Virus record (IMG/VR): IMGVR_UViG_3300045988_132172
Coordinates: 1 to 12,431 of that record
Source of the DNA: a virus
Reading direction: 5' to 3' (one strand)
DNA: 12,431 nt
Part shown: positions 1-12,431 of the stretch, piece by piece
Position numbering within the stretch: position 1 is the stretch's first letter
Layout of the letters: the number at the start of each line of letters is the position of its first letter
Made by a program: the position numbers and the translations under genes
The notes under the pieces: model-generated
Told to the model about the DNA's origin: nothing
Database searches by the model: none
What the model saw: the letters and a program-made list of their open reading frames with translations, nothing else

Positions 1-176
1 GGCAAGACCAACCTGTGAACAAATTGTTAACATTTCCCCAATCTGTTCATATTTCGTTCATAATTGCAAAACTGGCATGAATCTTGCTAGGCAACTATAA
101 CATTAAATTGTCTGACAATATCATACAAAGTCTGTCACTTATTCTGTTGACGTTTTAGCTCATTTGAACTATAATA
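1..176. repeat. Left inverted terminal repeat (ITR-L) of a linear genome
   Basis: Bases 1-176 are the reverse complement of 12256-12431 except at one position (C132 faces A12300). Complementarity stops after 176/12256. ITRs at the exact window ends, together with a protein-primed PolB gene, indicate genome termini. Confidence 0.95.
147..175 (+). promoter_or_regulatory. ITR-embedded SigA/sigma-70-type promoter, left copy (points inward, antisense to all genes)
   Basis: TTGACG (147-152), 17-nt spacer, TATAAT (170-175) on the plus strand. It is sequence-identical to the right-end copy. No plus-strand gene follows it, so the sequence match is strong but function at this end is uncertain. Confidence 0.4.
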
Positions 177-177
177 A

Positions 178-199
178 TAGCCCAGCAAACGCTGGGCTA
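178..199 (-). terminator. Intrinsic-terminator-like hairpin after the last gene (possibly bidirectional)
   Basis: Perfect 9-bp stem TAGCCCAGC/GCTGGGCTA with a 4-nt loop, 8 nt beyond the TAA stop (208-210) of the appendage gene. On the minus strand it is followed by UUAUUAUAGUU; on the plus strand by CCUCUUAUUU. Confidence 0.6.
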
Positions 200-207
200 C
201 CTCTTAT

Positions 208-1464: not shown

Positions 1465-1477
1465 AATTTATTCCTCC

Positions 1478-2167
1478 TTAATAAGTTAATAAAAGCAGAT
1501 CCTGTGCAAAAAGACCTGTGCAATAGTCAATAAAGCTTTGTTTTCTCAACTCAAGCTCTGACTGAATCATCTGCTGAGAGGTAGTAACTCCAATATTGCC
1601 ATGAATACGCCCGGAGTGCTTATTCTGTCCGGTCTCCCGGCTTGTCTCACCCTTGCCATATTCAAATGTGTTTTTGTTTTCTCCGGAGCTTTGCACTGTT
1701 GTGCTACCACTGTACTCTGTAGTTGTTTTTTCGTTTGGGCTGTAGCTTGCATCATTAAAAGCACTGACTTCATTGGTAGCTGTATCTGCCCCAGAGTTTG
1801 TCGTAGTGGTTCCCTGCCCTGCTTCTGCCTTGTTTACATCCTGCCCGGAGCTTTGACTTGTTCGTGTCAGATCGGGGCTATCTGTCCATTCTTCATGACG
1901 GTCATAGTTTTCAATCGGTTCATAATTCGTTAATTCTAATACATTATAAACTTTTTCAATGCTACTTTTCCATTTCCTGCTCCATGCAGGAATAGCATTT
2001 TCATGCATAAAATCCCAGTCCGGATAAAGTGGTTCACAGTCCCCATAAGACAGAAGCAGACTATCGATAAAGTTCTGTTTGTCTGCTGATTCTGGGAATT
2101 CCATTTTATCAAATAAAATGTCATTCCATTCATAAAGCCCTGCTATCGTAACCTTATAAAGTGCCAT
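1478..2167 (-). CDS. Putative lower collar / tail tube protein (phi29 gp11 position)
   Basis: 229-aa ORF with RBS GGGGGTGAAAAGTT before ATG 2167, overlapping the connector gene by 14 nt. It lies directly downstream of the connector gene, as gene 11 does in phi29. It has an S/T/G/N-rich central segment and a C-terminal HGNIGVTTSQQM motif that I recall from collar proteins of small Gram-positive podophages. The call is mainly positional. Confidence 0.55.
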   Translation of the reverse strand: MALYKVTIAGLYEWNDILFDKMEFPESADKQNFIDSLLLSYGDCEPLYPDWDFMHENAIPAWSRKWKSSIEKVYNVLELTNYEPIENYDRHEEWTDSPDLTRTSQSSGQDVNKAEAGQGTTTTNSGADTATNEVSAFNDASYSPNEKTTTEYSGSTTVQSSGENKNTFEYGKGETSRETGQNKHSGRIHGNIGVTTSQQMIQSELELRKQSFIDYCTGLFAQDLLLLTY

Positions 2168-3074
2168 AACTTTTCACCCCCGCAGTTTCATAGTTTCTGA
2201 TCTTGACTGACAAATTCATTTCCGGATAAAGTCTATTTGTCATGTCAACCCCTGCTTGCATGGTTTCAAGCCATGTCGTAAGCCGTGTCACGGATTCTGC
2301 ATCATTTTTGCTTGTTTCAAGCACATTCAGACGTTCTTTTTTATCGGAACCAACAGACGGAATCCCTACTTCCGTGTCAAACTGATCCAGAAGTTTCTCA
2401 AACACCTCAATCAGCTCCGGTGCTATAAAGTTTTGCTTAAGATCCTTATTAAAACTTTCCCAGGCCTCCTGCTTGCTTCCCTGTCTGTCTTCTGTTTTTA
2501 TTGATACATCAAAAGCCTCAACTGGGTTACCAGCCTGTATGCTGTCATAGATTTTTTTCAATGTCTGAGCTGCTGCTTTGTTTTTGGCAGCTATCAGAAA
2601 TGCAAGTTTTGAGTTAAACACATTCATGTCAAAAGCAGATGCTACAAGTGCCAGTTTGTAGCTATAAAAGCCAATTATATCTCCAATACCGCAGAAAGTT
2701 GGTCTGAGATAGATGACAGAACAGTCTTTCCCAATTTCCATATCTTCTATTTCAATTGTAGCATTGCTTGCATACGTGTGTATGCTTGCTGTCGTTGGCT
2801 TAAAGTAAATATTGTACCCTGTCAGCATAGGGTATTGAGCAATTAACCCATAAAGATCTGTCTTTGTGATGCAAATATACCCCCCAAAAAGCAGGCAATA
2901 TTTGAAATAGTCAATATCAATACTTCCATTGTATGTGATGTCAAGAATAGAACAGACCCTCTCGTAAAGCATCCGATCAAATGTATCAGTATATAAGCTG
3001 TTGACTTTGATTCCGGATGGTTGGAAATAATTTGTGCAGATGTTGATCTTGTCAAAATTAACCGGTGTCCACAT
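2154..3074 (-). CDS. Head-tail connector (portal), phi29 gp10-like
   Basis: 306 aa (phi29 gp10 is about 309 aa) with RBS AAAAGGAGGAAAGAAAAAC before ATG 3074. By-eye similarity to remembered gp10 includes KKERLNVLETSKNDAES versus KKERMVTDEVSSNDEQIES, and NRLYPEMNLSVKIR versus NELYGLNVKVKFR. The helical middle region is comparable (AAKNKAAAQTLKKIYDSIQAGNPV versus [34 protein letters not shown]). Confidence 0.8.
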   Translation of the reverse strand: MWTPVNFDKINICTNYFQPSGIKVNSLYTDTFDRMLYERVCSILDITYNGSIDIDYFKYCLLFGGYICITKTDLYGLIAQYPMLTGYNIYFKPTTASIHTYASNATIEIEDMEIGKDCSVIYLRPTFCGIGDIIGFYSYKLALVASAFDMNVFNSKLAFLIAAKNKAAAQTLKKIYDSIQAGNPVEAFDVSIKTEDRQGSKQEAWESFNKDLKQNFIAPELIEVFEKLLDQFDTEVGIPSVGSDKKERLNVLETSKNDAESVTRLTTWLETMQAGVDMTNRLYPEMNLSVKIRNYETAGVKSYGTL

Positions 3075-3091
3075 GTTTTTCTTTCCTCCTT

Positions 3092-4435
3092 TTATTCAAA
3101 ATAAAATCCATTATTTAGGTAGCTGTTCACCTGTTCTTGATCTCCCTCGAATCCTGCAATCTGGATAGATGCATTCCGGCATTTTACAAAACCACTCAGT
3201 GCAGAAATACTGCGGACAGTACCATCTATATAACCCTCACTTGTGCCATCTGGATCTATGCTTGTGCAAGCATAGCAGATACTGTTTGCATCCATGTTGT
3301 TGAGTATCGAGGAAATATTGCCAACCGTACCTACCATGTTGGGCTCTGGGGCTGTAACACTTTGAAATGCATCTACAATGCTTGTGCTTGCCTTAATTGG
3401 ATTCATTGTGACAGCACTTGTGGCTGTATCTAACAAGCTTGTCGTAAGCTGGCCAATGTTTGTTGTGGCATATCCAATCTGTACCGGAACAGCAAGCTGA
3501 CATTGGAAGTGTGCATATTCATCAGATCCGGAAGTGAGCCAAACATCAGCCATGCCTGATACAGCATCAAAGTTATAAGTAGCTTTTAACTGCCCTTTAT
3601 GTGTCTTTGTTGGATTGATAGGGATAACACCCACAAATGGTAATTTGACAGTATACTTTGAAAAACTAGCATTGTAATAGCGGAAATCTGTATCAGCATA
3701 TAAGGGGTTACCAAGGCTTAAATCATAAGAAAAAGTGCATGTTGCATCATTAATTAATGCAGCAGTTACATTGCTGTCCCAGTAGCCAAGTTTGATAGTA
3801 TCGGTGATATTCAAGAATGAGCTTAACCGGAATGGCAGCCATTTTAAGTCTACGATATACTGAAATGGATTGAAAAGCAACCGTGTAAGTGCTGAGTCAA
3901 TCACGTCTGGAATTGATCCATACGTGTACATGAATTTCATCAGATCATCTAATTGGCTTCCTCTGACATAATAAGTGCTTATCCCCTCTACTGAAATAGT
4001 CCGTAGCAGATAGTTTCTAGCATACCCATTCACAAACGTGTTTATCGGCAGTCCAACTATCGTAGACTGGCTTACCCAGTCATTTGTAGGAATGTACATA
4101 CTGTCATTGGCAAGCGTAGTCTGCTTAGCAGACCGATCAATGAAGCATGTATAGTTGCTGATCTCTGTCCGATAGGTAGCTAACACATCCTCACTCGCTG
4201 ATATCTCAACCATTTCATTATTTAAAGACAATGTTGAATTGATAAAATAGTAATGGTCAGCCCATTTCAGATAGTTGAATTGCAATGCAATATCCAATGA
4301 CAATTTTAATTTAAACACTGGATTCTGAAACGTGGTGTTTGATTTTAAAAGACAGGGGGCAACTGTCCCCTGTCCTGTCGGTCTTTTTGTACTGTTTTTT
4401 CGTTTGGAAAAATGGAATAAGATAATCTCTGTCAT
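3092..4435 (-). CDS. Tail knob / distal tail protein, phi29 gp9-like
   Basis: The ORF track gives 3092..4477 starting at TTG. I prefer ATG 4435 (MTEIILFHFSKRKNST..., 447 aa), which forms an ATGA overlap with the endolysin stop and matches where gp9-like N-termini begin. The N-terminal region (NYLKWADHYYFINS...EDVLATY) and the C-terminal end (GFVKCRNASIQIAGFEGDQEQVNSYLNNGFYFE) resemble remembered phi29 gp9 segments. It sits directly upstream of the connector gene, as in phi29. Confidence 0.65.
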   Translation of the reverse strand: MTEIILFHFSKRKNSTKRPTGQGTVAPCLLKSNTTFQNPVFKLKLSLDIALQFNYLKWADHYYFINSTLSLNNEMVEISASEDVLATYRTEISNYTCFIDRSAKQTTLANDSMYIPTNDWVSQSTIVGLPINTFVNGYARNYLLRTISVEGISTYYVRGSQLDDLMKFMYTYGSIPDVIDSALTRLLFNPFQYIVDLKWLPFRLSSFLNITDTIKLGYWDSNVTAALINDATCTFSYDLSLGNPLYADTDFRYYNASFSKYTVKLPFVGVIPINPTKTHKGQLKATYNFDAVSGMADVWLTSGSDEYAHFQCQLAVPVQIGYATTNIGQLTTSLLDTATSAVTMNPIKASTSIVDAFQSVTAPEPNMVGTVGNISSILNNMDANSICYACTSIDPDGTSEGYIDGTVRSISALSGFVKCRNASIQIAGFEGDQEQVNSYLNNGFYFE

Positions 4436-5082
4436 GATAGATAAATATCTCCCTTTGCCGTGATTGCACATATCCAACCGGATGGAATCCTAACCCACGT
4501 TGCACCAACCTCATCCTTTTTGACATCTTTTACCGTGACTGTGGTTCCTTTTTTCAAGCATCCATCTGAATAAGCATGTTTCATGCCATCCATTGTCAGT
4601 TGTGCATACTTTTTGATCTGACCCCATACACTATAGCGTACATGTAAGTGATCTACGACAGTGGTATAAGTATGACCTATTTCATAAGATGGAGTTTTTC
4701 CCTCCCATACCCTGCGTATGCAATATAAGTCGGACCTACGACTTACAAGGCTTTTGACTACGCCAACCCCAGGATTGTATGGGGTGTTTTTTCTACCGCC
4801 TCTACTCTCAATCATATAGCCGTTACCAATAAAAATGGCACAATGTGTCACAGGAGATCCAAAGAACAGGAAATCACCGGGTCTCTCCTGACCAATGGGG
4901 ATCATTTCACCCATGTTTGCATAAGTTGCTGCATTATATCGCCCAACGTCTGAACCTGCTGTCCTCTGGACACAGTAAAGCAGTCCGGAACAGTCAAGTC
5001 CTTGTGCAGGTGTTGAACCACCCCACACATAAGGAGTACCAATTAAATTATGAGCATATACTAGAATTTGATTTGATGTCAT
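4432..5082 (-). CDS. Endolysin: NlpC/P60 cysteine peptidase plus C-terminal SH3b-like wall-binding domain
   Basis: 216 aa. NlpC/P60 signatures are YVWGG...GLDCSGL (catalytic Cys) and THCAIFIGNGYMIES (His). The C-terminal ~70 aa (HLHVRYS...GTTVTVKDV...WVRIPSGWI) follow an SH3b-like pattern. It lies immediately downstream of the holin gene. Confidence 0.85.
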   Translation of the reverse strand: MTSNQILVYAHNLIGTPYVWGGSTPAQGLDCSGLLYCVQRTAGSDVGRYNAATYANMGEMIPIGQERPGDFLFFGSPVTHCAIFIGNGYMIESRGGRKNTPYNPGVGVVKSLVSRRSDLYCIRRVWEGKTPSYEIGHTYTTVVDHLHVRYSVWGQIKKYAQLTMDGMKHAYSDGCLKKGTTVTVKDVKKDEVGATWVRIPSGWICAITAKGDIYLS

Positions 5083-5089
5083 TTTACAC

Positions 5090-5314
5090 CTACTTTCCTA
5101 ATTGCTCAATTAATATGTTCATCTTTTCCAAAGCAAGCGTGTTATTTTTTATCACTTCGGAGAGTGTATCAACTTCGCTTTTATGATCCTCATTAAGCTT
5201 GTCAACTCTTGCGTTCGTCTGATCGTACATGTATTTTACAAAGTAGGCCATCATGCAACAGCAGACGATCGGAAACGCATAATTTCCGAGAATAGTTAAG
5301 AATGTATCCATCAT
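5090..5314 (-). CDS. Holin, BhlA/UviB-like (single N-terminal TM helix plus coiled-coil tail)
   Basis: 74 aa with RBS GGGAGGTTACATAACA before ATG 5314. A hydrophobic N-terminus (FLTILGNYAFPIVCCCMMAYFV) is followed by a charged helical tail (DKLNEDHKSEVDTLSEVIKNNTLALEKMNILIEQL), which is the BhlA/UviB architecture. It sits directly upstream of the endolysin. Confidence 0.7.
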   Translation of the reverse strand: MMDTFLTILGNYAFPIVCCCMMAYFVKYMYDQTNARVDKLNEDHKSEVDTLSEVIKNNTLALEKMNILIEQLGK

Positions 5315-5316
5315 TG

Positions 5317-5628
5317 TTATGTAACCTCCCTTTTTTCAAAGTAATTCACATTTACAAAAGTGCTTGTTTCTATCATAACCCTACCTGTGCTATTACCAAT
5401 CACAGAAATAAAGAAACATGATGGGGCTGGAAATCCGTACGGCGTTTCCGGAAAAGTAAAATCAACAAGCTCCGTTTTTGCCAATAAAACAGGACTATTA
5501 TCAGTTAACATTAACCCAGTAGCAGAGTCGGGATCCCCATTATTTAAAATCACAATCCTTTTTATGCCTACTGTATCATCCAACGGAAGCAGAGTAGGCG
5601 TATCGACTGTTACGTCAAAATAAATCAT
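5317..5628 (-). CDS. Hypothetical beta-rich protein (positional analogue of phi29 gene 8.5; function unknown)
   Basis: 103 aa. The ATG overlaps the capsid gene stop by 1 nt (TAATG). No motif recognised. It is coding-like and tightly coupled to the major capsid gene. Confidence 0.6.
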   Translation of the reverse strand: MIYFDVTVDTPTLLPLDDTVGIKRIVILNNGDPDSATGLMLTDNSPVLLAKTELVDFTFPETPYGFPAPSCFFISVIGNSTGRVMIETSTFVNVNYFEKREVT

Positions 5629-6824
5629 TATACTCCCTCCCCCAATACATACAGAATCGCATTGTGTGTGAAGTTATTCCAAGCGTTGAAACGGTAATGG
5701 TCAAAGATGTTGTAATATCCACCTGCTGCATTGAATGGCGTAGCTGCCGAGTACATCCATTGGTTATTCACTCCCATTGCTCTACGATCATATAAAAGAC
5801 CAAGTACATAAGGAAGACTTACCGCTGTCGTGTCTGTTTTTGAAACCCCATCAGCATCAATGATGTTTGGCTTAATATTGATCGCTGGGCTATCGAACTC
5901 CTGCCAGCCGTTTACCAACTCTTTGTCAGCGATTTTAAGCTGCTCATCAGAAAAGACAGTCGGGAATACCTGTGTTTCAGAATCAATCCAGAAATCAGTG
6001 TACATAAGCAGTTTCTGATTCTCCGGTCTAGAGAATCTCAAGATCTCTTTCCCAGTCAGATTCATGTGATATTTTGTTGTGCGGTCCTGCATTTTTTTCG
6101 AATCTTTCTTGATTCTGGCAACCACAAAAGCCATGAAGTCTCTGTGATGCTCCGGGCTTAAAAGCTGCTTTCTTGTCAGCTCTGTACCATATGCTGTATT
6201 GTACTCCTTTACCAGATCCACCTCATTTGTGCCAAGTGATGAGATACCAGCCATAAAGTTAAGCACCGTCATTCTGCGTTTTGCTTCATTTCTGGATTCA
6301 ATATCGTTGTAGTAAGCAGTCATATAGCTACTTACAAACATGAGAAACTCTGCTTCGTTGGAGAAAGCAAGTGCCAGCTGATCACGGAAACGTGTGACAT
6401 GAGATTGTAACACCTTGCTTCCGTAGAATTTCAACTCTACTACTTTCGGGGCATTGATCTTATACATATCGACAGATTGACCATCAGCAAGCTGGTTTTC
6501 ATTCAAATCTGTATTCCAATCCTGGGATGCTTCTGCATCTAATGGAAGTGAAATAATCTCACGTGTGATGGCCCCCCATCGCTCATTATTCTCAATGATG
6601 GATCGGAACACTCCGGATCTGTATTTTTCCATTTCAAAATAAGTACGTCCACACCACTGACTGAGTGCTTTCAAGGTAGACTCTACACCCGTCCGAAGCA
6701 TTGTCTCTCCGACAGCCACAAAAGAACTTGTATCTACTGCTTTGATGTTCTCCCTTCCGGTAGCCATCTTGTACAGGTCATTAATGATTAAATAGGCATC
6801 CTGTACGACTAAACTATTTGCCAT
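5628..6824 (-). CDS. Major capsid protein, phi29 gp8-like (HK97 fold), without a C-terminal Ig-like domain
   Basis: 398 aa with RBS TAAGGGGGGTAATAGAAA before ATG 6824. By-eye matches to remembered gp8 include FLMFVSSYMTAYYNDIE versus FESFVSSIINAIYNSAE, and the C-terminal GGYYNIFDHYRFNAWNNFTHNAILY versus [25 protein letters not shown]. The protein ends where the gp8 BIG2 domain would begin. Confidence 0.8.
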   Translation of the reverse strand: MANSLVVQDAYLIINDLYKMATGRENIKAVDTSSFVAVGETMLRTGVESTLKALSQWCGRTYFEMEKYRSGVFRSIIENNERWGAITREIISLPLDAEASQDWNTDLNENQLADGQSVDMYKINAPKVVELKFYGSKVLQSHVTRFRDQLALAFSNEAEFLMFVSSYMTAYYNDIESRNEAKRRMTVLNFMAGISSLGTNEVDLVKEYNTAYGTELTRKQLLSPEHHRDFMAFVVARIKKDSKKMQDRTTKYHMNLTGKEILRFSRPENQKLLMYTDFWIDSETQVFPTVFSDEQLKIADKELVNGWQEFDSPAINIKPNIIDADGVSKTDTTAVSLPYVLGLLYDRRAMGVNNQWMYSAATPFNAAGGYYNIFDHYRFNAWNNFTHNAILYVLGEGV

Positions 6825-6839
6825 TTTCTATTACCCCCC

Positions 6840-7175
6840 TTAATTCATGAGTTTCATGAGATCGTCTGCTACGTTCTCAGAAGTTCGCGGTGCTGATCCA
6901 CTTTTTCCAGATGCTGACAGGTTACCAGCTTGTAACGTAGCGGTCAAAGTATTGATTGCTGTCAGCAGAGCCGCATTGGTTGCATCCTGTCCTGTCTGTG
7001 CTGTCAGATTCAGTGGAGTATTTGCAACCTGCTGACCCAGATTCTGAATCTGTTCTGTACCATGTGGGCTTGTGATCTGATTAAGCCCAGTCATGTTCTG
7101 AGCGTTCAGAATTCCAATGATCTCATTTTTTGAAAATCCAAGTTTACCAAGTTCTAAAATCTGATCTACTTTCAT
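6840..7175 (-). CDS. Putative scaffolding protein (phi29 gp7 position)
   Basis: 111 aa with RBS AAAAGGAGATAAAA before ATG 7175. It is Q/N/T/A-rich, probably helical or disordered, with a charged C-terminal end (ENVADDLMKLMN). It lies immediately upstream of the capsid gene. The call is positional only. Confidence 0.45.
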   Translation of the reverse strand: MKVDQILELGKLGFSKNEIIGILNAQNMTGLNQITSPHGTEQIQNLGQQVANTPLNLTAQTGQDATNAALLTAINTLTATLQAGNLSASGKSGSAPRTSENVADDLMKLMN

Positions 7176-7198
7176 TTTTATCTCCTTTTCTGCCGGAA

Positions 7199-7284
7199 TT
7201 GAAAAAATTAAAATAGGTCAACGCTTCCGGGTTATCATCCCATGGCATCCGCTTCCGGCGGTAGATGTAGCCGCGTTGACCTAT
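7199..7284 (-). terminator. Branched 72-nt hairpin plus U-tract: intrinsic terminator of the early unit and/or a small structured RNA
   Basis: A perfect 12-bp closing stem joins ATAGGTCAACGC (7213-7224) to GCGTTGACCTAT (7273-7284) and encloses 48 nt. The enclosed region can form two small hairpins on the minus-strand RNA (CCGC-CGGAA-GCGG and GGG-AUGAUAA-CCC). On the minus strand the structure is followed by UUUAAUUUUUUCAA (7212-7199). It lies in the only large intergenic gap, between the ATPase and scaffold genes. Confidence 0.55.
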
Positions 7285-7288
7285 CTCT

Positions 7289-7317
7289 AATATAATTTTT
7301 TTAAAACAGTTTGTCAA
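7289..7317 (-). promoter_or_regulatory. Candidate late/structural-module promoter inside the 3' end of the ATPase gene
   Basis: On the minus strand: TTGACA (7317-7312), 17-nt spacer, TATATT (7294-7289). The predicted start at about 7281-7284 coincides with the first bases of the 12-bp stem. Confidence 0.5.
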
Positions 7318-8347
7318 TATAGAATTTTACAGAAATGTTCTGATAGCTGATTCTATTTGTCAGACGATAGCTGTCAATCCAGCTATAAAAGCATCTAAAC
7401 TGATCTTTTCCATGCTGACTGTCTTCAAAAACGTCTTTACAAGTGCCAGAAATATGATCCGACACATACAAGTGTGCTTTTGATTTGTGCTCATAAATCG
7501 CAACTTTTCCAATCACACAAATTAGCTTGTATTGCCGGATGTCCTCTGATCTGACATCCGAGACATCATCATATGCAAATTCATTCGATAATGCCATCTT
7601 TGCAAAATCCGTGTCACCAGACAAAGCACGATACAATGCAGTATCTTTTTTCTTTTCTGAAATCGGGGAATCGTTAATCAAAACCAAGATGATTCCTCTC
7701 TCTTTTAGCATGGAAAATTCCTGCTTGTTCTTTTTCATTCGTTCAAAGATTGGCAGCAATCCAAAAGCTTGCACAATTGCATTATCTAATGTGTTTGAGT
7801 TGGAAGCAAGCCACCAGCGGAATGGCTTCTTTCCTTGCAATTCTCTGTTTGCTGATATGGTCTCAACAGCATTTAAAAAAGCATCATCCTCCCCACTGAT
7901 TGACTTAGCGATCTTCTCCGGGATGAACTCATCATAAATCCCCTCAGAGAAATCAGATCCAGAGAAACCACGATTATTATGCATTGAAGTAAGGGAAAAA
8001 GCTTCACCCCTATAAACTTGTTCATCTTCTGTTTGCTCCATGATCTTGATACGCCCATATTCACCTCTGGGCTTTTCAAAATGAAAAAACCTGTTCATAT
8101 GTTTATTGATATCAAGCCACGGATCAAACTCAGGAAGAAATACTTTTGTCAGTTGCTCTTTTGTACGCCTCATATAGATGATCTTCTCATTTTTGGGAAA
8201 AACATCATTGATGAAGTGCTGGAAAATGCCATACGTTTTTCCAGTTCTTCTGGCTCCAATAATGAATATGAAGTTAATTTTATTTTTATCAGCAAGCTGG
8301 ACGATCCTTGGAACGTCCAGCCAACCATTTTTATCGTAGATATTCAT
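7301..8347 (-). CDS. DNA packaging (encapsidation) ATPase, phi29 gp16-like
   Basis: 348 aa (gp16 is about 332 aa). Walker A is IIGARRTGKTY (gp16 VIGARGIGKSY) and Walker B is GIYDEFIPEK (gp16 IVFDEFIREK). IIYMRRT resembles FIYVRR and WWLASNSN resembles CICLSNA. The start ATG directly abuts the SpoVG-like stop (TAAATG). Confidence 0.9.
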   Translation of the reverse strand: MNIYDKNGWLDVPRIVQLADKNKINFIFIIGARRTGKTYGIFQHFINDVFPKNEKIIYMRRTKEQLTKVFLPEFDPWLDINKHMNRFFHFEKPRGEYGRIKIMEQTEDEQVYRGEAFSLTSMHNNRGFSGSDFSEGIYDEFIPEKIAKSISGEDDAFLNAVETISANRELQGKKPFRWWLASNSNTLDNAIVQAFGLLPIFERMKKNKQEFSMLKERGIILVLINDSPISEKKKDTALYRALSGDTDFAKMALSNEFAYDDVSDVRSEDIRQYKLICVIGKVAIYEHKSKAHLYVSDHISGTCKDVFEDSQHGKDQFRCFYSWIDSYRLTNRISYQNISVKFYIDKLF

Positions 8348-8647
8348 TTAGGAAAACCCACCCCCGGATGCTACCGGCTGCGAATTCTTATTGCACTCAT
8401 TGTATTTTTTAATACATGCATTCTCCAATAGCTTTGTCCATTCTTTGTCCAGGCTATATACAGTATTGTGATAATCATCATCACTTCCTTTTTTACTTGG
8501 AAATGACAGAAAAAGACTATCTCCCCATTCTATCAATGTAAGTCCTTTAATTACAAGGGTGTCGTCAAGTTCCAGATCAATAAAAGCTTTTGTTCTTGAC
8601 TTTCCATTATAAGGTTTGCAAGTAATTTTTACGTTTGATTTTAACAT
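8348..8647 (-). CDS. SpoVG-family nucleic-acid-binding protein
   Basis: 99 aa with RBS AGGAGATAAACTAAT before ATG 8647. It follows the SpoVG pattern throughout. KAFIDLELDDTLVIKGLTLIEWGDSLFLSFPSKKGSDDDYHNTVYSL aligns by eye with B. subtilis SpoVG [47 protein letters not shown]. Confidence 0.7.
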   Translation of the reverse strand: MLKSNVKITCKPYNGKSRTKAFIDLELDDTLVIKGLTLIEWGDSLFLSFPSKKGSDDDYHNTVYSLDKEWTKLLENACIKKYNECNKNSQPVASGGGFS

Positions 8648-8662
8648 ATTAGTTTATCTCCT

Positions 8663-8776
8663 TTAATCATCTAACAAAAACCATAATTGACAGCTTGCAA
8701 ACATGCAAGCAAAAGTAACACAAGTCCAGAAAAGAGTTTCAATATCTTCTTTATTTTCTTTCCAGAATTTTTTCAT
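8663..8776 (-). CDS. 37-aa putative membrane micro-protein (not in the supplied ORF track)
   Basis: Hand translation gives MKKFWKENKEDIETLFWTCVTFACMFASCQLWFLLDD, a charged N-terminus followed by about 20 hydrophobic residues. It is preceded by GGAGGTGAAAACC-ATG. The same GGAGGTGAAAAC 12-mer precedes the first early gene at 12207. It fills most of the gap between the polymerase and SpoVG-like genes. Confidence 0.45.
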   Translation of the reverse strand: MKKFWKENKEDIETLFWTCVTFACMFASCQLWFLLDD

Positions 8777-8845
8777 GGTTTTCACCTCCTGTCTATATTA
8801 TTGTAACTTGTTTATATTACAAAACTATTACAGATTTATAATATT

Positions 8846-10969
8846 TTATCCGTATACGGTATCTTCCATTTCAAATGGCAACGGCAATCCTGTTTCCTTG
8901 TCATATGGAATCGTGTGATCTAACTCATATTCTGTTTCTGTCAATCGGATGGCACAACCATATTCAATCCTGCATCCATCAATGGTCAGATCGTGAACCC
9001 CATCATGAAAAATATATTCTGTTTTCATTTTCCACCTGGGATCTTGCCAATCATTCGCCCTGCGGTAGTTCCTGCGATACGTCAAATCATTTTTGAAAAT
9101 AAACCCTTTTCTAAAATTGCTTATATCATCATTAAGGCAATATATCCCCTCTTTTGGCACTCCTGCGACTGTCAGATGCAAAGACTCATCTTTTTTCAAG
9201 CGGTAACAATAACGCTTACTACCCATCGTGATGAACTCACTGTATATCCCATCAAACTCAGCAATTCCAAGCCGAAATGTTTTTTCCTTATACTCTACTA
9301 CACCAATTTTTCTTTTTTCTGACATTTCAATTACAGACTGATTAAACTCATTCAGTTTATCATGATCCCAGTCTGTACCTTTTACAGAATCTGTGTCTGA
9401 GTATAGCCACACCCGGCAGCAGGAACCCAGCCGGAAAAGATAAGCCTGTGCATACGCTGTAATAAATACCCCCCACTGGTAGGGCATAAAACTGTTCTTA
9501 TTCCGATAGAACTTTTCAAGCTCTTTTTCCCTGTCCTCTGGTTCTTTTGCCTCCCACTCTCCGAACTCCATAAGCTCTGTACATAAGATCTGGATGATTC
9601 GCTGTACTGTCATGCCATACATTCCATTAAGCTCCCCTTTTGAGATCATGTAATTTTCTTCGTCCAAATCTTTAAGCGTACATTTTTTAAAAAACAATTC
9701 CATCAAATAGTCGGTAAACCACTTCGGCAAGTAATCTTTTGTAGCTCTCATGACCTTTGACACATCAGCCCAATCGTAATCATAACTTGAAAGGATGACT
9801 TCTAAATCTGGATCCGTAAAAGGATAGATGACAAGATCAGCGTTGACGATCTTTCCATTATCCAAGTTGTCATGGAACTGTTCTTTTTTACTTTTTGCCT
9901 CAGGAAAAACACAAACTTTTGCTTTTGAAAAAGCCAGCGGGGGCATGGGGCACTCTTTTTTCAGTCTCAGATTCTTAAGTCTTATATAGCCGGAAAAAGC
10001 ATAATCTTCTTTCAGTTCCATAATGTCTTTTAATGTTATATTATCAGTATAACAAAAATTCGACATTGGAAATTTACAATAGCACATCCAAGCAATGTAT
10101 GAGCTTGCAAAATCATAGCACTCAACAGGTTCTTTTATCAGCTGATTGACATAATACCTGTTTGCATGGGTATAGCCCCCATGATAGCAATCAACCATTT
10201 GATCGTATTGCTCCAACGTCAGGGCCATTTGTTCAAATTGCTTGCGCCATTTCTTGTCTTTTCTTGCCCTCCTGCGTGCGTTCGTCCGGATAAAGCCTGT
10301 ATTGGTCAACGGACAGTTCGCCACATTAAATCCTCTCTGATCTATGTATTTGCGTAATGCCTTACACAAACTGATCGTATCTGTACAGACATAGGCAATT
10401 TCTTTTGCTGTACGTTGACTTGCTGGCGTTCGGAATTTCTTATAGTCCCATGTTCCGACAGCTTTTTCAGTCGTTCCCATGTCTTTGCATAGTTTCTCAA
10501 GTGATCTTTGTGTTAAGATAAGACTATCCCTGAACTCAATCCCTTGTCCTGTCCATTTCATAAAAATGTATTTATGAGTTTTACTAGCAAGAGATTTATC
10601 CGGTATCCCCCATTTTTGGAAAAAATGGTTACGAAGAAAAACATAGTCATATGGAAAGTTATGCACATAAAAGCGTACAAGGTGACTATTGTCAGCATGT
10701 AAAGTTGTACAGATCCTGTCTATTGTTTCAATCAGATCAGAAACATGATTGCCATAAATACAGCAATCATCCTCTATCGTGATTGTCCAATCCGTGACAA
10801 AGCCAATGTTTTTGTTAAGATAGACAAAAGTCTCCGTATCAACAGTTATAATTTTTTCATAAACTCCTAAATAATGCCCTGCGTTGGATCTCCGGATAAA
10901 ATCACCGTTAAACAGTCGCATATAATCATAGTTCTTAAAATAAATAACTGGATATCCTGCGACTACCAT
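8846..10969 (-). CDS. Protein-primed family-B DNA polymerase (phi29 gp2-like)
   Basis: 707 aa with RBS AGGGGGTAAAGT before ATG 10969. Motifs in canonical order: ExoI VDTETF, ExoII HNFPYDYVF, ExoIII YVCTDTISL, YxGG YHGGYT, motif A YDFASSY, motif B KGELNGMYG, motif C YSDTDS and KxY GSKRY. The long spacing between motifs A and B, and between B and C, is compatible with TPR1/TPR2 insertions. Confidence 0.95.
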   Translation of the reverse strand: MVVAGYPVIYFKNYDYMRLFNGDFIRRSNAGHYLGVYEKIITVDTETFVYLNKNIGFVTDWTITIEDDCCIYGNHVSDLIETIDRICTTLHADNSHLVRFYVHNFPYDYVFLRNHFFQKWGIPDKSLASKTHKYIFMKWTGQGIEFRDSLILTQRSLEKLCKDMGTTEKAVGTWDYKKFRTPASQRTAKEIAYVCTDTISLCKALRKYIDQRGFNVANCPLTNTGFIRTNARRRARKDKKWRKQFEQMALTLEQYDQMVDCYHGGYTHANRYYVNQLIKEPVECYDFASSYIAWMCYCKFPMSNFCYTDNITLKDIMELKEDYAFSGYIRLKNLRLKKECPMPPLAFSKAKVCVFPEAKSKKEQFHDNLDNGKIVNADLVIYPFTDPDLEVILSSYDYDWADVSKVMRATKDYLPKWFTDYLMELFFKKCTLKDLDEENYMISKGELNGMYGMTVQRIIQILCTELMEFGEWEAKEPEDREKELEKFYRNKNSFMPYQWGVFITAYAQAYLFRLGSCCRVWLYSDTDSVKGTDWDHDKLNEFNQSVIEMSEKRKIGVVEYKEKTFRLGIAEFDGIYSEFITMGSKRYCYRLKKDESLHLTVAGVPKEGIYCLNDDISNFRKGFIFKNDLTYRRNYRRANDWQDPRWKMKTEYIFHDGVHDLTIDGCRIEYGCAIRLTETEYELDHTIPYDKETGLPLPFEMEDTVYG

Positions 10970-10982
10970 ACTTTACCCCCTG

Positions 10983-11603
10983 CTATGGTCTATACTTCAA
11001 AGCTTCTGCTTCACTAGCAAAGCCCAGCTGTTTTGCTATTGTGTCGGCTGCATCTGGATCAGTTCTCTCACGGAATTTTTCCAAGTCTTTTATAATCTCA
11101 GAAACCGTAGAATCATCCAGTTTATGACTGATGATTCTCATTGTCTGTTTGCTGTCATAGAATCGCTGCATCCACTTCCATACTTCAGACTTGAAAAATA
11201 ACTTCATTTCCTCTTTAGATTTAAAGTTGATTCCGTATTCTGTACTTAGGGTTTTTTGACGTTGATCTATGATCTCACGCCAGCCCTGCACAGTGCTGCT
11301 CTTTTCTTTCAAAATTTTTTGAATTGCTTTCACTTGAGTTCGTGGCAGAGCCTTGTATTTTTCATTATCCAGATTTTCCGGAATAGTTGACCTACCCGGG
11401 AAAAATCTTGCAAGCAGATCCTGATAGTCTGCATAAGCTCCTCCAACTTCTGAATCAAAGCCTTTTGCCTTTAATCTACGCATACGCTGATTCAGACGTT
11501 TTGCAAGCTGTCTGCGGAGCTGTAAAGCTTCCATAGTAGTAAGCATGTTCGGGTTGACGTTCAAACCCTTTGACGTGGTTGGGATTTTAGGATTCTTTGG
11601 CAT
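10983..11603 (-). CDS. Candidate terminal protein (positional; no recognisable motif)
   Basis: 206 aa, immediately upstream of the PolB gene, which is the canonical TP-pol arrangement in phi29, Cp-1 and PRD1. The N-terminal third is strongly basic (LQLRRQLAKRLNQRMRRLKAKG). It overlaps the preceding ORF by 17 nt. Confidence 0.4.
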   Translation of the reverse strand: MPKNPKIPTTSKGLNVNPNMLTTMEALQLRRQLAKRLNQRMRRLKAKGFDSEVGGAYADYQDLLARFFPGRSTIPENLDNEKYKALPRTQVKAIQKILKEKSSTVQGWREIIDQRQKTLSTEYGINFKSKEEMKLFFKSEVWKWMQRFYDSKQTMRIISHKLDDSTVSEIIKDLEKFRERTDPDAADTIAKQLGFASEAEALKYRP

Positions 11604-11961
11604 TATATATCACACCCTTCATATACTCATAAATGCTATCGTATTCCCTAGTTGTTATGCGAAAATCTAATTCTGGTATTTTAATGATCAAATAAAGATT
11701 CTCACATATAACTCTTGCGTCGTTAATAGTATCATGAACATAAAATGAGGCAATAAAATGATATGATTTAACATTTATTAGAGACTTTGAACGATTGTAC
11801 ATTGTTTTTCGTGCAACTCTCCTTATGACGATTATTACTTCTGGATAGTTTAATTCTATCATGTCTGACCTGTCAAGATCTGGGTTTGATTTCATAAGAG
11901 TCACTACCGGGGCTTTTACCCCGGTATTGGTATATTTGAGTTTTTTGTATTTTGATTTCAT
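11587..11961 (-). CDS. Hypothetical early protein (124 aa)
   Basis: Coding-like ORF whose ATG directly abuts the upstream stop (TAAATG). The N-terminus is basic (MKSKYKKLKYTNTG). No motif recognised. Confidence 0.6.
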   Translation of the reverse strand: MKSKYKKLKYTNTGVKAPVVTLMKSNPDLDRSDMIELNYPEVIIVIRRVARKTMYNRSKSLINVKSYHFIASFYVHDTINDARVICENLYLIIKIPELDFRITTREYDSIYEYMKGVIYNAKES

Positions 11962-12207
11962 TTAGTCTACCTTCTGTTCATCCTCTTTTAATCTCATAAT
12001 CTCTTTAAATAACTCAATAGCTTCTTTATCAGTTGTCGCATTAATAATCTCAACTTCATCAGTTCCCTCATATGCATCAGCAAAGTATCTTGCTCCATTA
12101 TACTCCTTATAAAGAGTATACATATAACCCCAACTTGTTTCAATAGTCATAAGTTCTTTGCCAACATATACTCTGTATCTTCCATATAAAATTTTTCCAT
12201 GCTTCAT
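11962..12207 (-). CDS. Hypothetical early protein (81 aa), first gene of the array
   Basis: The ORF track starts at TTG 12252. I place the start at ATG 12207 (MKHGKILYG...) because it is preceded by AAGGAGGGAGGTGAAAAC. The TTG also lies at or upstream of the transcription start predicted from the ITR promoter. The protein has an acidic C-terminal tail (LKEDEQKVD). Confidence 0.65.
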   Translation of the reverse strand: MKHGKILYGRYRVYVGKELMTIETSWGYMYTLYKEYNGARYFADAYEGTDEVEIINATTDKEAIELFKEIMRLKEDEQKVD

Positions 12208-12255
12208 GTTTTCACCTCCCTCCTTTATGACCTTGCTGTATTTATTTGACAAGTC

Positions 12256-12431
12256 TATTATAGTTCAAATGAGCTAAAACGTCAACAGAATAAGTGACAA
12301 ACTTTGTATGATATTGTCAGACAATTTAATGTTATAGTTGCCTAGCAAGATTCATGCCAGTTTTGCAATTATGAACGAAATATGAACAGATTGGGGAAAT
12401 GTTAACAATTTGTTCACAGGTTGGTCTTGCC
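12256..12431. repeat. Right inverted terminal repeat (ITR-R)
   Basis: Reverse complement of 1-176 with one mismatch (A12300 versus C132). Confidence 0.95.
12257..12285 (-). promoter_or_regulatory. ITR-embedded early promoter, right copy (drives the minus-strand gene array)
   Basis: On the minus strand: TTGACG (12285-12280), 17-nt spacer, TATAAT (12262-12257). The predicted start near 12250 gives a leader of about 43 nt ending in a strong RBS before ATG 12207. Confidence 0.65.

Follow-up and report, generated by a model that had tools for sequence, protein, structure and literature searches.

The window analyzed here is a 12,431-nucleotide stretch of viral DNA (IMG/VR record IMGVR_UViG_3300045988_132172, positions 1 to 12,431), and the locus under study lies on its minus strand, where the gene for a Gp16-type DNA packaging ATPase gives way to a gene for a 111-residue protein. 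Also encoded by this genome are a connector of the Gp10 type, a capsid protein of the Phi29 type, and a type B polymerase that is protein-primed (Pfam matches in the window: PF05894, PF05352, PF25622, and PF03175), and its mirrored terminal promoter sites imply inverted terminal repeats. The 111-residue product has no family in Pfam or PHROG. Its gene immediately precedes Phi29_MCP, the place that gp7 takes in phi29, and the name scaffold, used below, is therefore a positional one. The features of the locus are these:

7301–8347, minus strand: gene for a podovirus Gp16-type DNA packaging ATPase (PF05894, E = 3.7e-15, match nearly full length)
7289–7317, minus strand: sigma-70-type promoter, with -35 TTGACA (7317–7312), a 17-nt spacer, and -10 TATATT (7294–7289); 11 of 12 consensus positions
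7213–7284, minus strand: structured RNA, from the P1 5′ strand to the P1 3′ strand (fold, R1 and R2 scores, covariation)
7273–7284, minus strand: P1 5′ strand AUAGGUCAACGC, pairing perfectly with 7213–7224; transcription likely starts in its first bases
7262–7272, minus strand: P2 5′ strand GGC (7272–7270) and 8-nt bulge UACAUCUA (7269–7262) (P2 pairing and compensatory changes)
7266–7264, minus strand: bulge bases AUC, complementary to the P3 loop
7249–7261, minus strand: E hairpin, consisting of CCGC (7261–7258), the pentaloop CGGAA (7257–7253), and GCGG (7252–7249) (pairing and covariation)
7242–7248, minus strand: AU (7248–7247), P2 3′ strand GCC (7246–7244), and linker AU (7243–7242) (fold and pair counts)
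7229–7241, minus strand: P3 hairpin, consisting of GGG (7241–7239), the loop AUGAUAA (7238–7232), and CCC (7231–7229) (pairing)
7236–7234, minus strand: P3 loop bases GAU, pairing with bulge AUC (loop–bulge covariation)
7213–7228, minus strand: A-rich junction strand GGAA (7228–7225) and P1 3′ strand GCGUUGACCUAU (7224–7213) (fold and pair counts)
7202–7212, minus strand: U-rich tract UUUAAUUUUUU, directly 3′ of P1 and, together with P1, terminator-like in the window lineage (sequence)
7192–7198, minus strand: anti-E segment UUCCGGC, complementary to GCCGGAA (E 5′ strand and loop, 7259–7253), 4 nt 5′ of the Shine-Dalgarno sequence
7173–7187, minus strand: Shine-Dalgarno sequence AAGGAG (7187–7182) and ATG (7175–7173) of the 111-residue gene (sequence)

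The -35 hexamer is located inside the last codons of the ATPase gene, the stop codon of which occupies 7303–7301. An earlier note on this DNA had placed a promoter here, TTGACA and TATATT separated by 17 nt, with its start at the first bases of a hairpin stem; the promoter is present as described, and its assignment to the RNA is borne out by an equivalent placement in relatives. Because the genome is AT-rich and abounds in sites that resemble promoters (47 found vs 37 expected), a single match in the window means little by itself, and it is the conserved position in relatives that counts. A promoter that matches at least 10 of the 12 consensus positions is present in 74% of 82 relatives vs 0.8% at random control positions, and in most of them it ends 4–7 nt 5′ of P1. 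In L257, TTGACA falls outside coding sequence.

The minus strand from 7284 to 7213 is predicted to fold into a 72-nt three-way-junction RNA composed of the closing helix P1, a bulged arm, and a second hairpin. The fold has an energy of -32.8 kcal/mol (z = -3.37), which was equaled by none of 200 shuffled sequences, and the covariance models R1 and R2 score the element at 99 and 72.5 bits, respectively. The perfect 12-bp stem described earlier pairs along its full length (AUAGGUCAACGC with GCGUUGACCUAU), and the 48 nt within it, said to be branched, give two arms in the fold. Other identities were considered for the same stretch. ARAGORN finds no tRNA or tmRNA. A 57-codon open reading frame that overlaps the RNA (7144–7317) was rejected as a gene because substitutions are paired and compensatory and indels are not multiples of three, and a hammerhead or other ribozyme was rejected because a conserved junction core is absent.

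The RNA at 7284–7213 is a real, conserved structured RNA family. R1, a covariance model built from close relatives only, recovers it from the corresponding position of phages with ATPases only about 35–50% identical to that of the window. R2 has exactly one match in 82 of 87 related phage contigs, with ATPases 35–97% identical to the window's. The carriers are small (12–15 kb) phi29-like podophages, mostly from human gut samples. Collecting them required a protein alignment, as a distant ATPase used as a single-protein query returned one locus only. At the DNA level, a loose pattern scan of viral contigs gave, among the matches listed, mostly chance hits; a tighter pattern gave 75 stretches, all of which lie in related phage contigs, mostly of 11–14 kb, with the exception of L202, L206, and L240. 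On bacterial genomes, the same pattern yielded chance matches and one 12.6-kb phage contig binned in an Odoribacter MAG. That binning is no reliable guide to host. Two cultured relatives were scanned with R2, Amedibacillus phage AD70P3 and Streptococcus phage Cp-1, and neither gave a hit; the closest isolates identified, Amedibacillus phages AD70P2 and AD70P3, have another kind of leader. The family is previously undescribed, and neither Rfam release 15 nor the literature searched contains it.

Selection on the structure is evident from the 82 sequences. P1, P2, E, and P3 are 90–100% paired, and cells changed on both sides of a pair number 833, compared with 252 in shuffles. All 12 pairs of P1 have changes on both sides. 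P2 is 100% paired with compensatory changes, the E helix is 100% paired with covariation at 4 of 4 pairs, and P3 is 98% paired. RNAalifold independently gives the same junction, and all 20 of its 20 pairs carry compensatory changes. Thus, the folding and covariation analyses that the earlier note had proposed identify a genuine conserved structure and no chance hairpin. These counts were obtained from model-based alignments because a MAFFT alignment of distant members (A5) misaligned P1; it was excluded. The outer two pairs of P1 are not conserved, and the conserved helix in close relatives is about 10 bp. Junction strands vary in both length and sequence, and conservation of sequence is confined to the pentaloop of the E hairpin, the most conserved sequence of the family, which is CGGAA in most members, with UGGAA, CUGAA, CAGAA, and CGAAA as variants.

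The bulge of the P2 arm and the loop of P3 are complementary to each other throughout much of the family. Cognate bulges and loops can form a mean of 4.3 Watson-Crick pairs, with at least four in 80% of cases, compared with 2.5 pairs and at least four in 12% for non-cognate combinations. Counted row by row, 63 of 82 sequences have at least four of five pairs. More than 20 different pairing sequences occur, one of which (AACCA/UGGUU) contains the AACC/GGUU of phi29, and they fall into two registers, distinguished by one unpaired A between the pairing bases and the E helix in some members and none in others. Because of the two registers, no single set of columns holds the pairing, so a count of register-1 columns gives only 60% paired. 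In the window itself, the complementarity amounts to only three pairs (AUC/GAU) and a U-U mismatch. The lengths of P2 (3–7 bp) and P3 (3–6 bp) vary across the family and trade off against one another, and the strand joining the E helix to the P3 loop is 10–11 nt long in 44 of 48 distinct cases. We infer that such constant spacing is more in keeping with two pairing sites at a fixed distance than with a loop closed within one molecule. The sequence data themselves could reflect either intermolecular bulge–loop pairing or an intramolecular pseudoknot, and fit the two alike.

A further complementarity connects the E hairpin to the region ahead of the scaffold ribosome-binding site. The earlier note had pointed to three copies of CCGGAA/TTCCGG (7193–7198, 7225–7230, and 7253–7258) and to the alternative pairings that they allow. 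The three copies are there, and since the hexamer is over-represented genome-wide (18 copies vs 2.3 expected), they are less special than they first appeared; the alternative pairing itself holds up, as it covaries in other lineages. GCCGGAA/UUCCGGC in the window is replaced elsewhere by AGCCGGA/UCCGGCU, CCCCGGA/UCCGGGG, and CUCGGAA/UUCCGAG, and an anti-E complement of at least 7 nt is found in 19% of cognate vs 2.6% of non-cognate pairs. Only 19–27% of distinct members have this pairing, and most lineages are without it. In other clades, the complement that precedes the Shine-Dalgarno sequence targets the P2 3′ strand, linker, and P3 5′ strand, for example GUCAUGGG/CCCAUGAC and GCCACGG/CCGUGGC. 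The RNA thereby combines two traits of a leader, a place in the 5′ untranslated region and an alternative pairing at the ribosome-binding region.

The reading that we favor, and to which we give roughly even weight, is a pRNA-like RNA in miniature, with a host-type promoter of its own and an additional connection in cis to scaffold translation. It is supported by the pRNA-like anatomy, by the phi29-type context of ATPase, connector, capsid protein, and polymerase, and by the position-conserved promoter. L259, in which a separate consensus promoter for the scaffold gene lies 3′ of the RNA, and the L274 clade, in which a strong canonical terminator stands between the RNA and the scaffold gene, argue for an independent transcription unit, and the covariation of the anti-E segment with the E hairpin argues for the cis link. 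A miniature packaging RNA had been suggested in the earlier note; this suggestion stands with respect to the topology of phi29 pRNA in miniature and gains a pRNA hallmark that the note had not described, the covarying bulge–loop complementarity, and it is not upheld by the Rfam pRNA model, which does not match.

A more explicit form of this proposal, offered tentatively and at a little short of even confidence, is that the RNA is the packaging RNA of phi29-like phages outside Bacillus, a minimal 72-nt pRNA ringed on the portal that serves as leader or terminated product of the scaffold–capsid transcript and feeds back on scaffold translation through its CGGAA loop. Under the favored reading, the RNA would do for these phages what prohead RNA does for phi29. 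Successive copies would be joined, bulge to hairpin loop, into a ring at the portal, with P1 projecting outward to hold the Gp16-type ATPase. In the window lineage, P1 and the U-rich tract may end many transcripts and so release an RNA of about 80–85 nt, whereas in transcripts that read through, the RNA would form the 5′ leader of the scaffold–capsid mRNA. Either on these transcripts or in trans, UUCCGGC ahead of the scaffold ribosome-binding site could pair with the CGGAA hairpin, and translation of scaffold would then depend on the RNA's state. In the more explicit form, the supply of motor RNA would also be coupled to capsid protein synthesis by the shared transcript.

Alternative explanations assign the element a role confined to the transcript that it heads. 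In the window, the 12-bp stem is followed by UUUAAUUUUUU (7212–7202), the U-tract noted earlier and confirmed in the window lineage, and from the RNA to the start codon of scaffold there is no other promoter for the structural genes, which obliges all late transcripts there to pass the RNA. The element might then be mainly an intrinsic terminator or attenuator that ends the early replication–ATPase unit and gates late read-through in the manner of lambda PR′-6S-tR′, its inner structure being incidental. However, the 48 nt enclosed by the stem are branched, selection acts strongly on this inner structure, and a pattern scan of the window for terminators does not call the element because its loop is too large. 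At least five T in the 8 nt 3′ of the RNA are found in about 45% of distinct members, about half of the family lacks a U-rich tract, and in one clade, the RNA lies at the far end of the genome and the ATPase operon, located elsewhere, has its own simple terminator there. Termination of the early unit, as had been claimed, is thus no property of the family, and we consider this explanation very improbable. Of the two ends that would define a discrete small RNA, the promoter is conserved, and a terminator-like 3′ end is seen in the window lineage and a few others. A 5′-terminal stabilizer that shields late mRNA from 5′ exonuclease or endonuclease, with no further role, is improbable as well. Stabilizers of mRNA in Gram-positive bacteria place a strong helix at the very 5′ end, and P1 begins 4–7 nt past the -10 hexamer in most members, which would put a strong helix at the transcript 5′ end; but a simple hairpin would suffice for this purpose, and the three-way junction, the covarying bulge and loop, the near-invariant pentaloop, and the 10–11-nt spacing would be left unexplained.

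A purely cis-acting 5′ leader of the scaffold–capsid mRNA is the more serious competitor, a real possibility that we judge less than probable. The junction, locked by an intramolecular bulge–loop pseudoknot, would be a translational operator and any short terminated RNA a by-product; a phage protein (scaffold, capsid, or SpoVG-like) would bind the CGGAA loop or, alternatively, the fold would sense a ligand, and binding would select between the hairpin and the anti-E pairing and so set scaffold and capsid output. The RNA heads the scaffold–capsid operon in all 82 members, immediately 5′ of the scaffold Shine-Dalgarno sequence (median 20 nt downstream, range 3–83), and where the structural module is inverted, it moves with this operon and not with the ATPase gene, as a cis-regulatory element would. 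Covariation between the pre-Shine-Dalgarno complement and the E hairpin, its retargeting to P2-3′/linker/P3-5′ in other clades, and the half of members without a terminator-like signal also speak for a leader, and post-transcriptional autoregulation is known for the scaffold of phage P22. Weighing against it, most lineages have no anti-E pairing, which therefore cannot be central to how the element works; apart from the pentaloop, bases of the junction and core are unconserved, unlike those of small-molecule riboswitches; the Rfam riboswitch and leader families have no match; the lengths of P2 and P3 trade off instead of matching; and the scaffold promoter 3′ of the RNA in L259 and the terminator in the L274 clade are hard to square with a leader on the same transcript. 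The pRNA-like reading has its own difficulties. It must accommodate the lack of sequence or model similarity to known pRNAs, a length of 72 nt with a short P1, the different junction strands, the invariable position as scaffold leader with travel alongside the structural module, the half of the family without a terminator-like signal, and the negative R2 results in AD70P3 and Cp-1. The phi29 connector binds pRNA through an RKR segment, and the connector's N-terminal end has no basic RKR-like segment here. The evidence suggests that a discrete trans-acting RNA and a late leader may both hold.

Many phages that are not of the Bacillus type carry the same ATPase, and an RNA with the ground plan of pRNA makes their use of RNA directly testable. 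If this RNA is a pRNA, RNA-dependent packaging would be ancestral to the whole phi29-like group and no oddity of Bacillus phages. The smallest phi29 pRNA that is still active is about twice as large, so the new RNA would show how small a motor RNA can be and would inform ideas on how the motor arose; RNA nanotechnology would gain a new self-assembling block that comes in many natural versions with mutually distinct loop pairs. If it is not a pRNA, the family would represent structured phage leaders of a new and widespread class that control capsid gene expression.

Several known systems share parts of this organization. Three-way-junction aptamers with contacts between their loops, such as the purine riboswitch, and operators in phage leaders that act on translation by binding protein, such as the pseudoknot of T4 gene 32, are likewise RNAs of about 70 nt in which P1 closes two arms with distal pairing, and they too are situated in 5′ untranslated regions with an alternative pairing segment beside the ribosome-binding site. 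They differ from the new family in that the latter has no conserved junction core, has arm lengths that trade off where those of the known systems match, and carries the alternative pairing in a minority of its lineages only. No Rfam riboswitch or leader family matched the window or 16 relatives, and other Rfam families gave chance-level matches only (e.g., miRNA models at E of at least 0.3). With lambda PR′-6S-tR′ the window lineage shares a constitutive promoter firing into a terminator-like structure just 5′ of all structural genes; therefore, the late genes depend on read-through for their expression, and a short RNA is probably produced. In contrast to lambda, no Q-type antiterminator or binding site is evident here, and the RNA has an architecture, conserved and covarying, for which a terminator would have no use, and a terminator-like tail that is absent in about half of members.

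Reviews treat pRNA as confined to phi29 and the Bacillus phages related to it (PMC11476376, PMC5066667), and a structure-based search in 2025 added only further Bacillus-phage pRNAs (PMC12670572). A pRNA was predicted for Cp-1 (Martin et al. 1996, as cited in PMC6266182), which models of Bacillus pRNAs do not recover (PMC6266182). As with the new family, that proposal concerned a packaging RNA for a phi29-like phage outside Bacillus and was made from secondary structure alone; it drew on one sequence, whereas covariation across 82 sequences is available here. The Rfam pRNA model to which the earlier note had pointed (RF00044) scores phi29 at 145 bits (E = 1e-35) as a positive control and, with E values of up to 10 allowed, matches neither the window nor the 201-nt region by itself; on 16 relatives it has no match up to E = 0.5. 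Conversely, R1 does not find the pRNA in phi29.

By way of comparison with phi29 pRNA itself, the new RNA is shorter (72 nt vs 120–174 nt), and its P1 has 12 bp (7–16 bp in the family), compared with about 25 bp, interrupted by bulges, in the A helix that holds the ATPase in phi29. The junction strand is A-rich between P3 and P1, in place of the UUU between the C and D helices of phi29, and the bulge–loop pairing comprises 4–5 (up to 6) bp in the family vs 3–4 bp in phi29 pRNA. The near-invariant CGGAA pentaloop and the complementary segment beside the downstream ribosome-binding site are particular to the new family. phi29 pRNA forms rings of five or six RNAs, binds proheads, and is needed for packaging; under the favored reading, the new RNA would do likewise. 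The phi29 ATPase cannot dock on the connector (portal) without pRNA (PMC7672431). The two RNAs nevertheless agree in the order of their helices, a 5′/3′ closing helix followed by an arm with a 5′ bulge and a terminal hairpin and then by a second hairpin. In both, the bulge is on the 5′ side and directly abuts the hairpin (7–9 nt and 4–5 bp, respectively, in the new family), and its 3′-most bases are complementary to the loop of the second hairpin and covary with it, so that complementary bases occupy the same two places as the intermolecularly pairing loops of phi29 pRNA. Both belong to phages with protein-primed replication, a Gp16-type ATPase, and a Gp10-type connector, and both have their own strong host-type promoter. 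In each case, shape is conserved and sequence poorly so, known pRNAs sharing only about 12% identity (PMC5066667).

The minus strand of the window carries, immediately downstream of a sigma-70-type promoter, a 72-nt RNA that folds into a three-way junction. The promoter, composed of TTGACA (7317-7312), a 17-nt spacer, and TATATT (7294-7289), overlaps the 3′ end of the ATPase gene (stop codon at 7303-7301). The 5′ strand of the closing helix P1, AUAGGUCAACGC (7284-7273), begins five bases after TATATT and pairs perfectly with GCGUUGACCUAU (7224-7213), and UUUAAUUUUUU (7212-7202) follows directly; the promoter, 12-bp stem, and trailing tract described in the earlier note are all found in place. 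The 101-nt stretch folds with -32.8 kcal/mol (z = -3.37), and none of 200 shuffles yielded an equal fold. The parts of the RNA are as follows.

Anatomy of the RNA in the window
7284-7273 / 7224-7213, minus strand: P1, 12 bp
7272-7270 / 7246-7244, minus strand: P2, GGC / GCC
7269-7262, minus strand: bulge on the 5′ side, UACAUCUA
7261-7249, minus strand: E hairpin, CCGC-CGGAA-GCGG
7243-7242, minus strand: linker, AU
7241-7229, minus strand: P3 hairpin, GGG-AUGAUAA-CCC
7228-7225, minus strand: junction strand, GGAA

A second near-consensus promoter (TTGACA-16-TAGAAT, 11/12; 7350-7377, minus strand) is situated inside the ATPase gene, ~60 nt upstream of the first. The three local copies of CCGGAA/TTCCGG claimed previously are also present; because this hexamer is over-represented across the genome (18 copies against 2.3 expected, a count reached in 0 of 200 dinucleotide-preserving shuffles), the triplet by itself is weak evidence. 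The hexamer consists of the E loop sequence and its complement, and its sites include 5446-5453 and 11376-11383, both TTCCGGAA. In ten of the 18 copies the mRNA strand has UUCCGG, so that pairing with the CGGAA loop is conceivable in principle; a bias in codons or dipeptides is another possible cause of the excess.

Relatives retrieved from IMG/VR by their ATPase comprise 80 loci in three tiers of ~95%, 67%, and 40% identity, and in the two closer tiers the element lies after the ATPase gene. P1 is wholly rewritten among clades with retention of pairing (AGGUCAACG, AAGGGAAAAC, AAGGAAGCG), while the inner sequence is conserved. Among 29 distinct sequences, both partners have changed in 13 of 26 pairs, and pairing is kept in 97% of cells, compared with ~29-44% when partners are slid. 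Additional clades were obtained by exact-protein look-ups, and a protein-profile locus search added 80 loci with ATPases 41-51% identical to a distant query. A covariance model built from close clades only (R1) detects the element at the expected place in distant phages (E 2e-6 to 0.05), and with a broader model (R2), 82 of the 87 loci each have exactly one match, with E no higher than 3e-4; E-values of these models are rough by design. In the resulting 82-sequence alignment, pairing is retained in 90% (P1), 100% (P2), 100% (E), and 98% (P3), and all 22 nested pairs have changed on both sides. Double-change cells number 833 against 252 ± 14 in shuffles, and the covariation score is 0.93 against 0.21 for shuffles and 0.11-0.17 for slid partners. 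Shuffling takes no account of phylogeny; the slid-partner controls, like the cognate versus non-cognate tests below, are independent of it. RNAalifold, unprompted, yields the same three-way junction. The structure is thus conserved and covarying in relatives, which rules out a chance hairpin, and it is close to certain that 7284-7213 encodes a genuine structured RNA, under selection and driven by its own promoter.

All long ORFs of the window are on the minus strand in an ORF scan, and Pfam recognizes the following products.

Genes with Pfam matches in the window
8846-10969, minus strand: protein-primed type B DNA polymerase
8348-8647, minus strand: SpoVG-like protein
7301-8347, minus strand: Podovirus Gp16-type packaging ATPase
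5628-6824, minus strand: Phi29-type major capsid protein
2154-3074, minus strand: phi29 Gp10-type connector
minus strand: NlpC/P60 hydrolase

The 111-aa gene at 6840-7175, for which Pfam and PHROG gave no family match, is a putative scaffold gene, named only by its position before the capsid gene, like gp7 in phi29. Promoter-like sites (TTGACG-17-TATAAT and ATAACA-16-TATCAT) are mirrored at the two ends (97-175, plus strand; 12335-12257, minus strand) and all directed inward; the mirroring implies that the ~12.4-kb genome is linear and complete, with inverted terminal repeats at least ~175 bp long. Its closest match in GenBank, at 87% identity, is a human faecal contig that carries no annotation. 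A strong bidirectional terminator-like hairpin (GGTAGCCCAGC...GCTGGGCTA; 176-201, both strands) follows the last gene at the left end, and the top Rfam match in the window, BSnc120 (E = 0.076), is merely this hairpin.

The SpoVG-like gene adjoins the ATPase gene, or lies one short gene further upstream, in the window and in related contigs L252-L257; in L258 its Pfam match is faint and the gene is two genes upstream, and no SpoVG match was recorded by Pfam in L259 or L260. On this evidence, the RNA probably does not require it as a partner. L252 and L253 (ATPase identity 76-78%) encode at a genome end, on the opposite strand, a 62-aa protein matching the anti-CRISPR family AcrIC5 (12773-12961 and 11068-11256, the latter match weak). 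Short tandem repeats occur in the scaffold-position gene of L254/L255 (ACCTCAGCAGGTGCAGAC units, ~6300-6700, partly N-masked in the record) and of contig L065 (ACACAGCCGAC units, ~4230-4260).

Rearrangements among relatives identify the neighbor that travels with the RNA. In the 67% clade, inversion has moved the polymerase module to the opposite end of the genome, and four elements stay together: a 98-aa gene (placed as the SpoVG-like gene is in the window), the ATPase gene, the RNA, and the scaffold gene; in its member L160, the inverted polymerase and terminal-protein module occupies 9312-12698 at the right end, a phi29-like convergent layout. In the 40% clade, a plain terminator ends the ATPase gene opposite a convergent structural module, and R2 places the RNA on the opposite strand at the extreme right of the genome, preceded by TTGACA-17-TATTTT and directly upstream of the scaffold and capsid genes. 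The conserved unit is therefore promoter, RNA, and scaffold-capsid operon, and the ATPase adjacency in the window is secondary.

In 74% of the 82 members, the RNA is preceded at a distance of 2-10 nt (mostly 4-7) by the end of a sigma-70-type promoter matching at least 10/12; the rate at random positions in the same loci is 0.8%. In related contig L257, TTGACA lies outside the ATPase coding sequence, within a short duplication, so the -35 element is more than a by-product of the ATPase C-terminus. The Shine-Dalgarno sequence of the next gene lies 3-83 nt beyond the RNA (median 20 nt). P1 runs into a U-rich tract in ~45% of distinct members, among them every close relative of the window, and about half of the family has no terminator-like signal after the RNA. 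The clade of contig L274 has a separate canonical terminator downstream of the RNA, and L259 has a consensus promoter (TTGCAT-17-TATAAT) between RNA and scaffold gene; in at least two lineages the RNA would be an independent transcription unit. Contigs L283, L289, L315, and L318, all of one clade, have GTGTATACAAGTATACAC or TGTATACAAnTATACA, a perfect palindrome that lies between the RNA and the scaffold ribosome-binding site, ~30-50 nt past the RNA, and could be an operator or an extra hairpin.

The alternative pairing near the scaffold ribosome-binding site proposed in the earlier note proved right. In the window, UUCCGGC (7198-7192), 4 nt before AAGGAG, is the complement of GCCGGAA, a segment made up of the loop and the 3′ half of the E 5′ strand. 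Variants seen in other lineages keep the E segment and pre-RBS segment matched (AGCCGGA/UCCGGCU, GGCCGGA/UCCGGCC, CCCCGGA/UCCGGGG, CUCGGAA/UUCCGAG, AUCCCGG/CCGGGAU), and complements of at least 7 nt occur in 19% of 79 distinct cognate combinations versus 2.6% of non-cognate ones. In several closer clades, the pre-RBS segment instead matches P2-3′/linker/P3-5′ (GUCACGGG/CCCGUGAC, GUCAUGGG/CCCAUGAC, GCCACGG/CCGUGGC, UGCCGUGG/CCACGGCA) and covaries with the otherwise unpaired linker. These covarying complements indicate that the RNA is wired to the scaffold translation start in many, though not all, lineages.

A further pairing connects the bulge to the P3 loop. In 44 distinct combinations, cognate bulge and loop form a mean of 4.3 contiguous Watson-Crick pairs (at least four in 80%, at least five in 45%), whereas bulges set against the P3 loops of other members form 2.5, with at least four in only 12%. 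More than 20 different pairing sequences occur, among them AUCA/UGAU, AACCA/UGGUU, AGCCA/UGGCU, GGUCA/UGACC, AGUCA/UGACU, GACCA/UGGUC, UGUCA/UGACA, GCACA/UGUGC, GUGCA/UGCAC, UAGCA/UGCUA, and GAAACA/UGUUUC. The two registers differ by one unpaired A beside the E helix; at least four of five pairs form in one of them in 63 of 82 aligned rows, the remainder being mostly rows with misaligned loops. The window itself is a weak case, with AUC (7266-7264) complementary to loop GAU (7236-7234) and a U-U mismatch besides these three pairs. Of 48 distinct cases, 35 have 10 nt and 9 have 11 nt between the end of the E helix and the P3 loop. The lengths of P2 (3 to 7 bp) and P3 (3 to 6 bp) are negatively correlated (r = -0.30, p ~0.04, uncorrected for phylogeny), and their sum has a variance of 0.51 versus 2.6 for the parts summed. 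If the pairing were closed within one molecule, with P2 alongside P3 and a 5-bp loop helix, the two lengths would be expected to increase in parallel; a total fixed at roughly one turn of helix would fit, without proving, two pairing sites at a set distance, as in a ring-forming subunit.

What this RNA does can be weighed against these data. Readings as only a terminator or only a stabilizer leave the conserved inner architecture unexplained. We consider a pRNA-like role in the packaging motor about as probable as not: a ground plan shared with pRNA, in the sister group of the only known pRNA-using phages, is hard to ascribe to chance, and the apparent independent transcription in at least two lineages also favors it. 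The main rival, carrying about a third of the weight, is a purely cis-acting operator of the scaffold-capsid mRNA containing an intramolecular pseudoknot; it is best supported by the constant location of the RNA ahead of the scaffold gene and by the covariation of the pairing beside the ribosome-binding site. The pRNA-like and operator readings are compatible, as an RNA freed by termination or processing could also act on its own mRNA.

Published accounts treat pRNA as exclusive to phi29 and its relatives among Bacillus phages (PMC11476376, PMC5066667). Twelve more pRNAs found in a 2025 search were all matched by phi29, GA1, or DLc1 pRNA models (PMC12670572), and the pRNA once predicted for Streptococcus phage Cp-1 was not recovered by Bacillus pRNA models (PMC6266182). 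The Rfam pRNA model RF00044, which scores 145 bits on phi29 as a positive control, gave no match up to E = 10 on the window or up to E = 0.5 on 16 diverse relatives, and R1 did not find the pRNA in phi29. Judged by sequence or profile, the gut-phage RNA is not a member of RF00044. Apart from a single binned phage contig, a scan of bacterial genomes returned chance matches only. Among cultured phages, the nearest found were Amedibacillus AD70P2/P3 (33% ATPase identity); at the same place they have a promoter followed by a structured leader of another kind, with a CCGAA pentaloop, and R2 gave no match in them. In AD70P3 (L361; OP172639, Guelinviridae), a TTGACA-17-ATATTA promoter lies between the ATPase gene and the next gene (6276-6398, minus strand), and the leader has a hairpin UAGUG-CCGAA-CACUA, its pentaloop of the CNRAA type seen in the family, and a possible GUUGC/GCAAC pseudoknot. 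This leader, which could be a divergent cousin of the RNA family, is accessible to experiment.

The likeness to pRNA suggested earlier is striking in ground plan, extends to bulge-loop complementarity, and fails at the level of the Rfam model; known pRNAs themselves keep their shape at only ~12% sequence identity (PMC5066667). The phi29 pRNA consists, in order, of a closing A helix, the C helix, a 9-nt 5′ bulge, the E hairpin (4 bp, 6-nt loop), the C return strand with no bulge, UUU, the D hairpin, and the A helix; the last four bases of the bulge, AACC, abut the E hairpin as the right-hand loop, and the D loop bears GGUU. The gut-phage RNA is half as long, has a short closing helix, a conserved pentaloop, and a position at the head of the late operon, and its junction has an A-rich strand between P3 and P1 where phi29 has UUU between C and D. 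The order of elements is nonetheless the same, the E hairpins are similar in size, and complementary bases occupy the same two places, with AACCA/UGGUU in some gut-phage members and AACC/GGUU in phi29.
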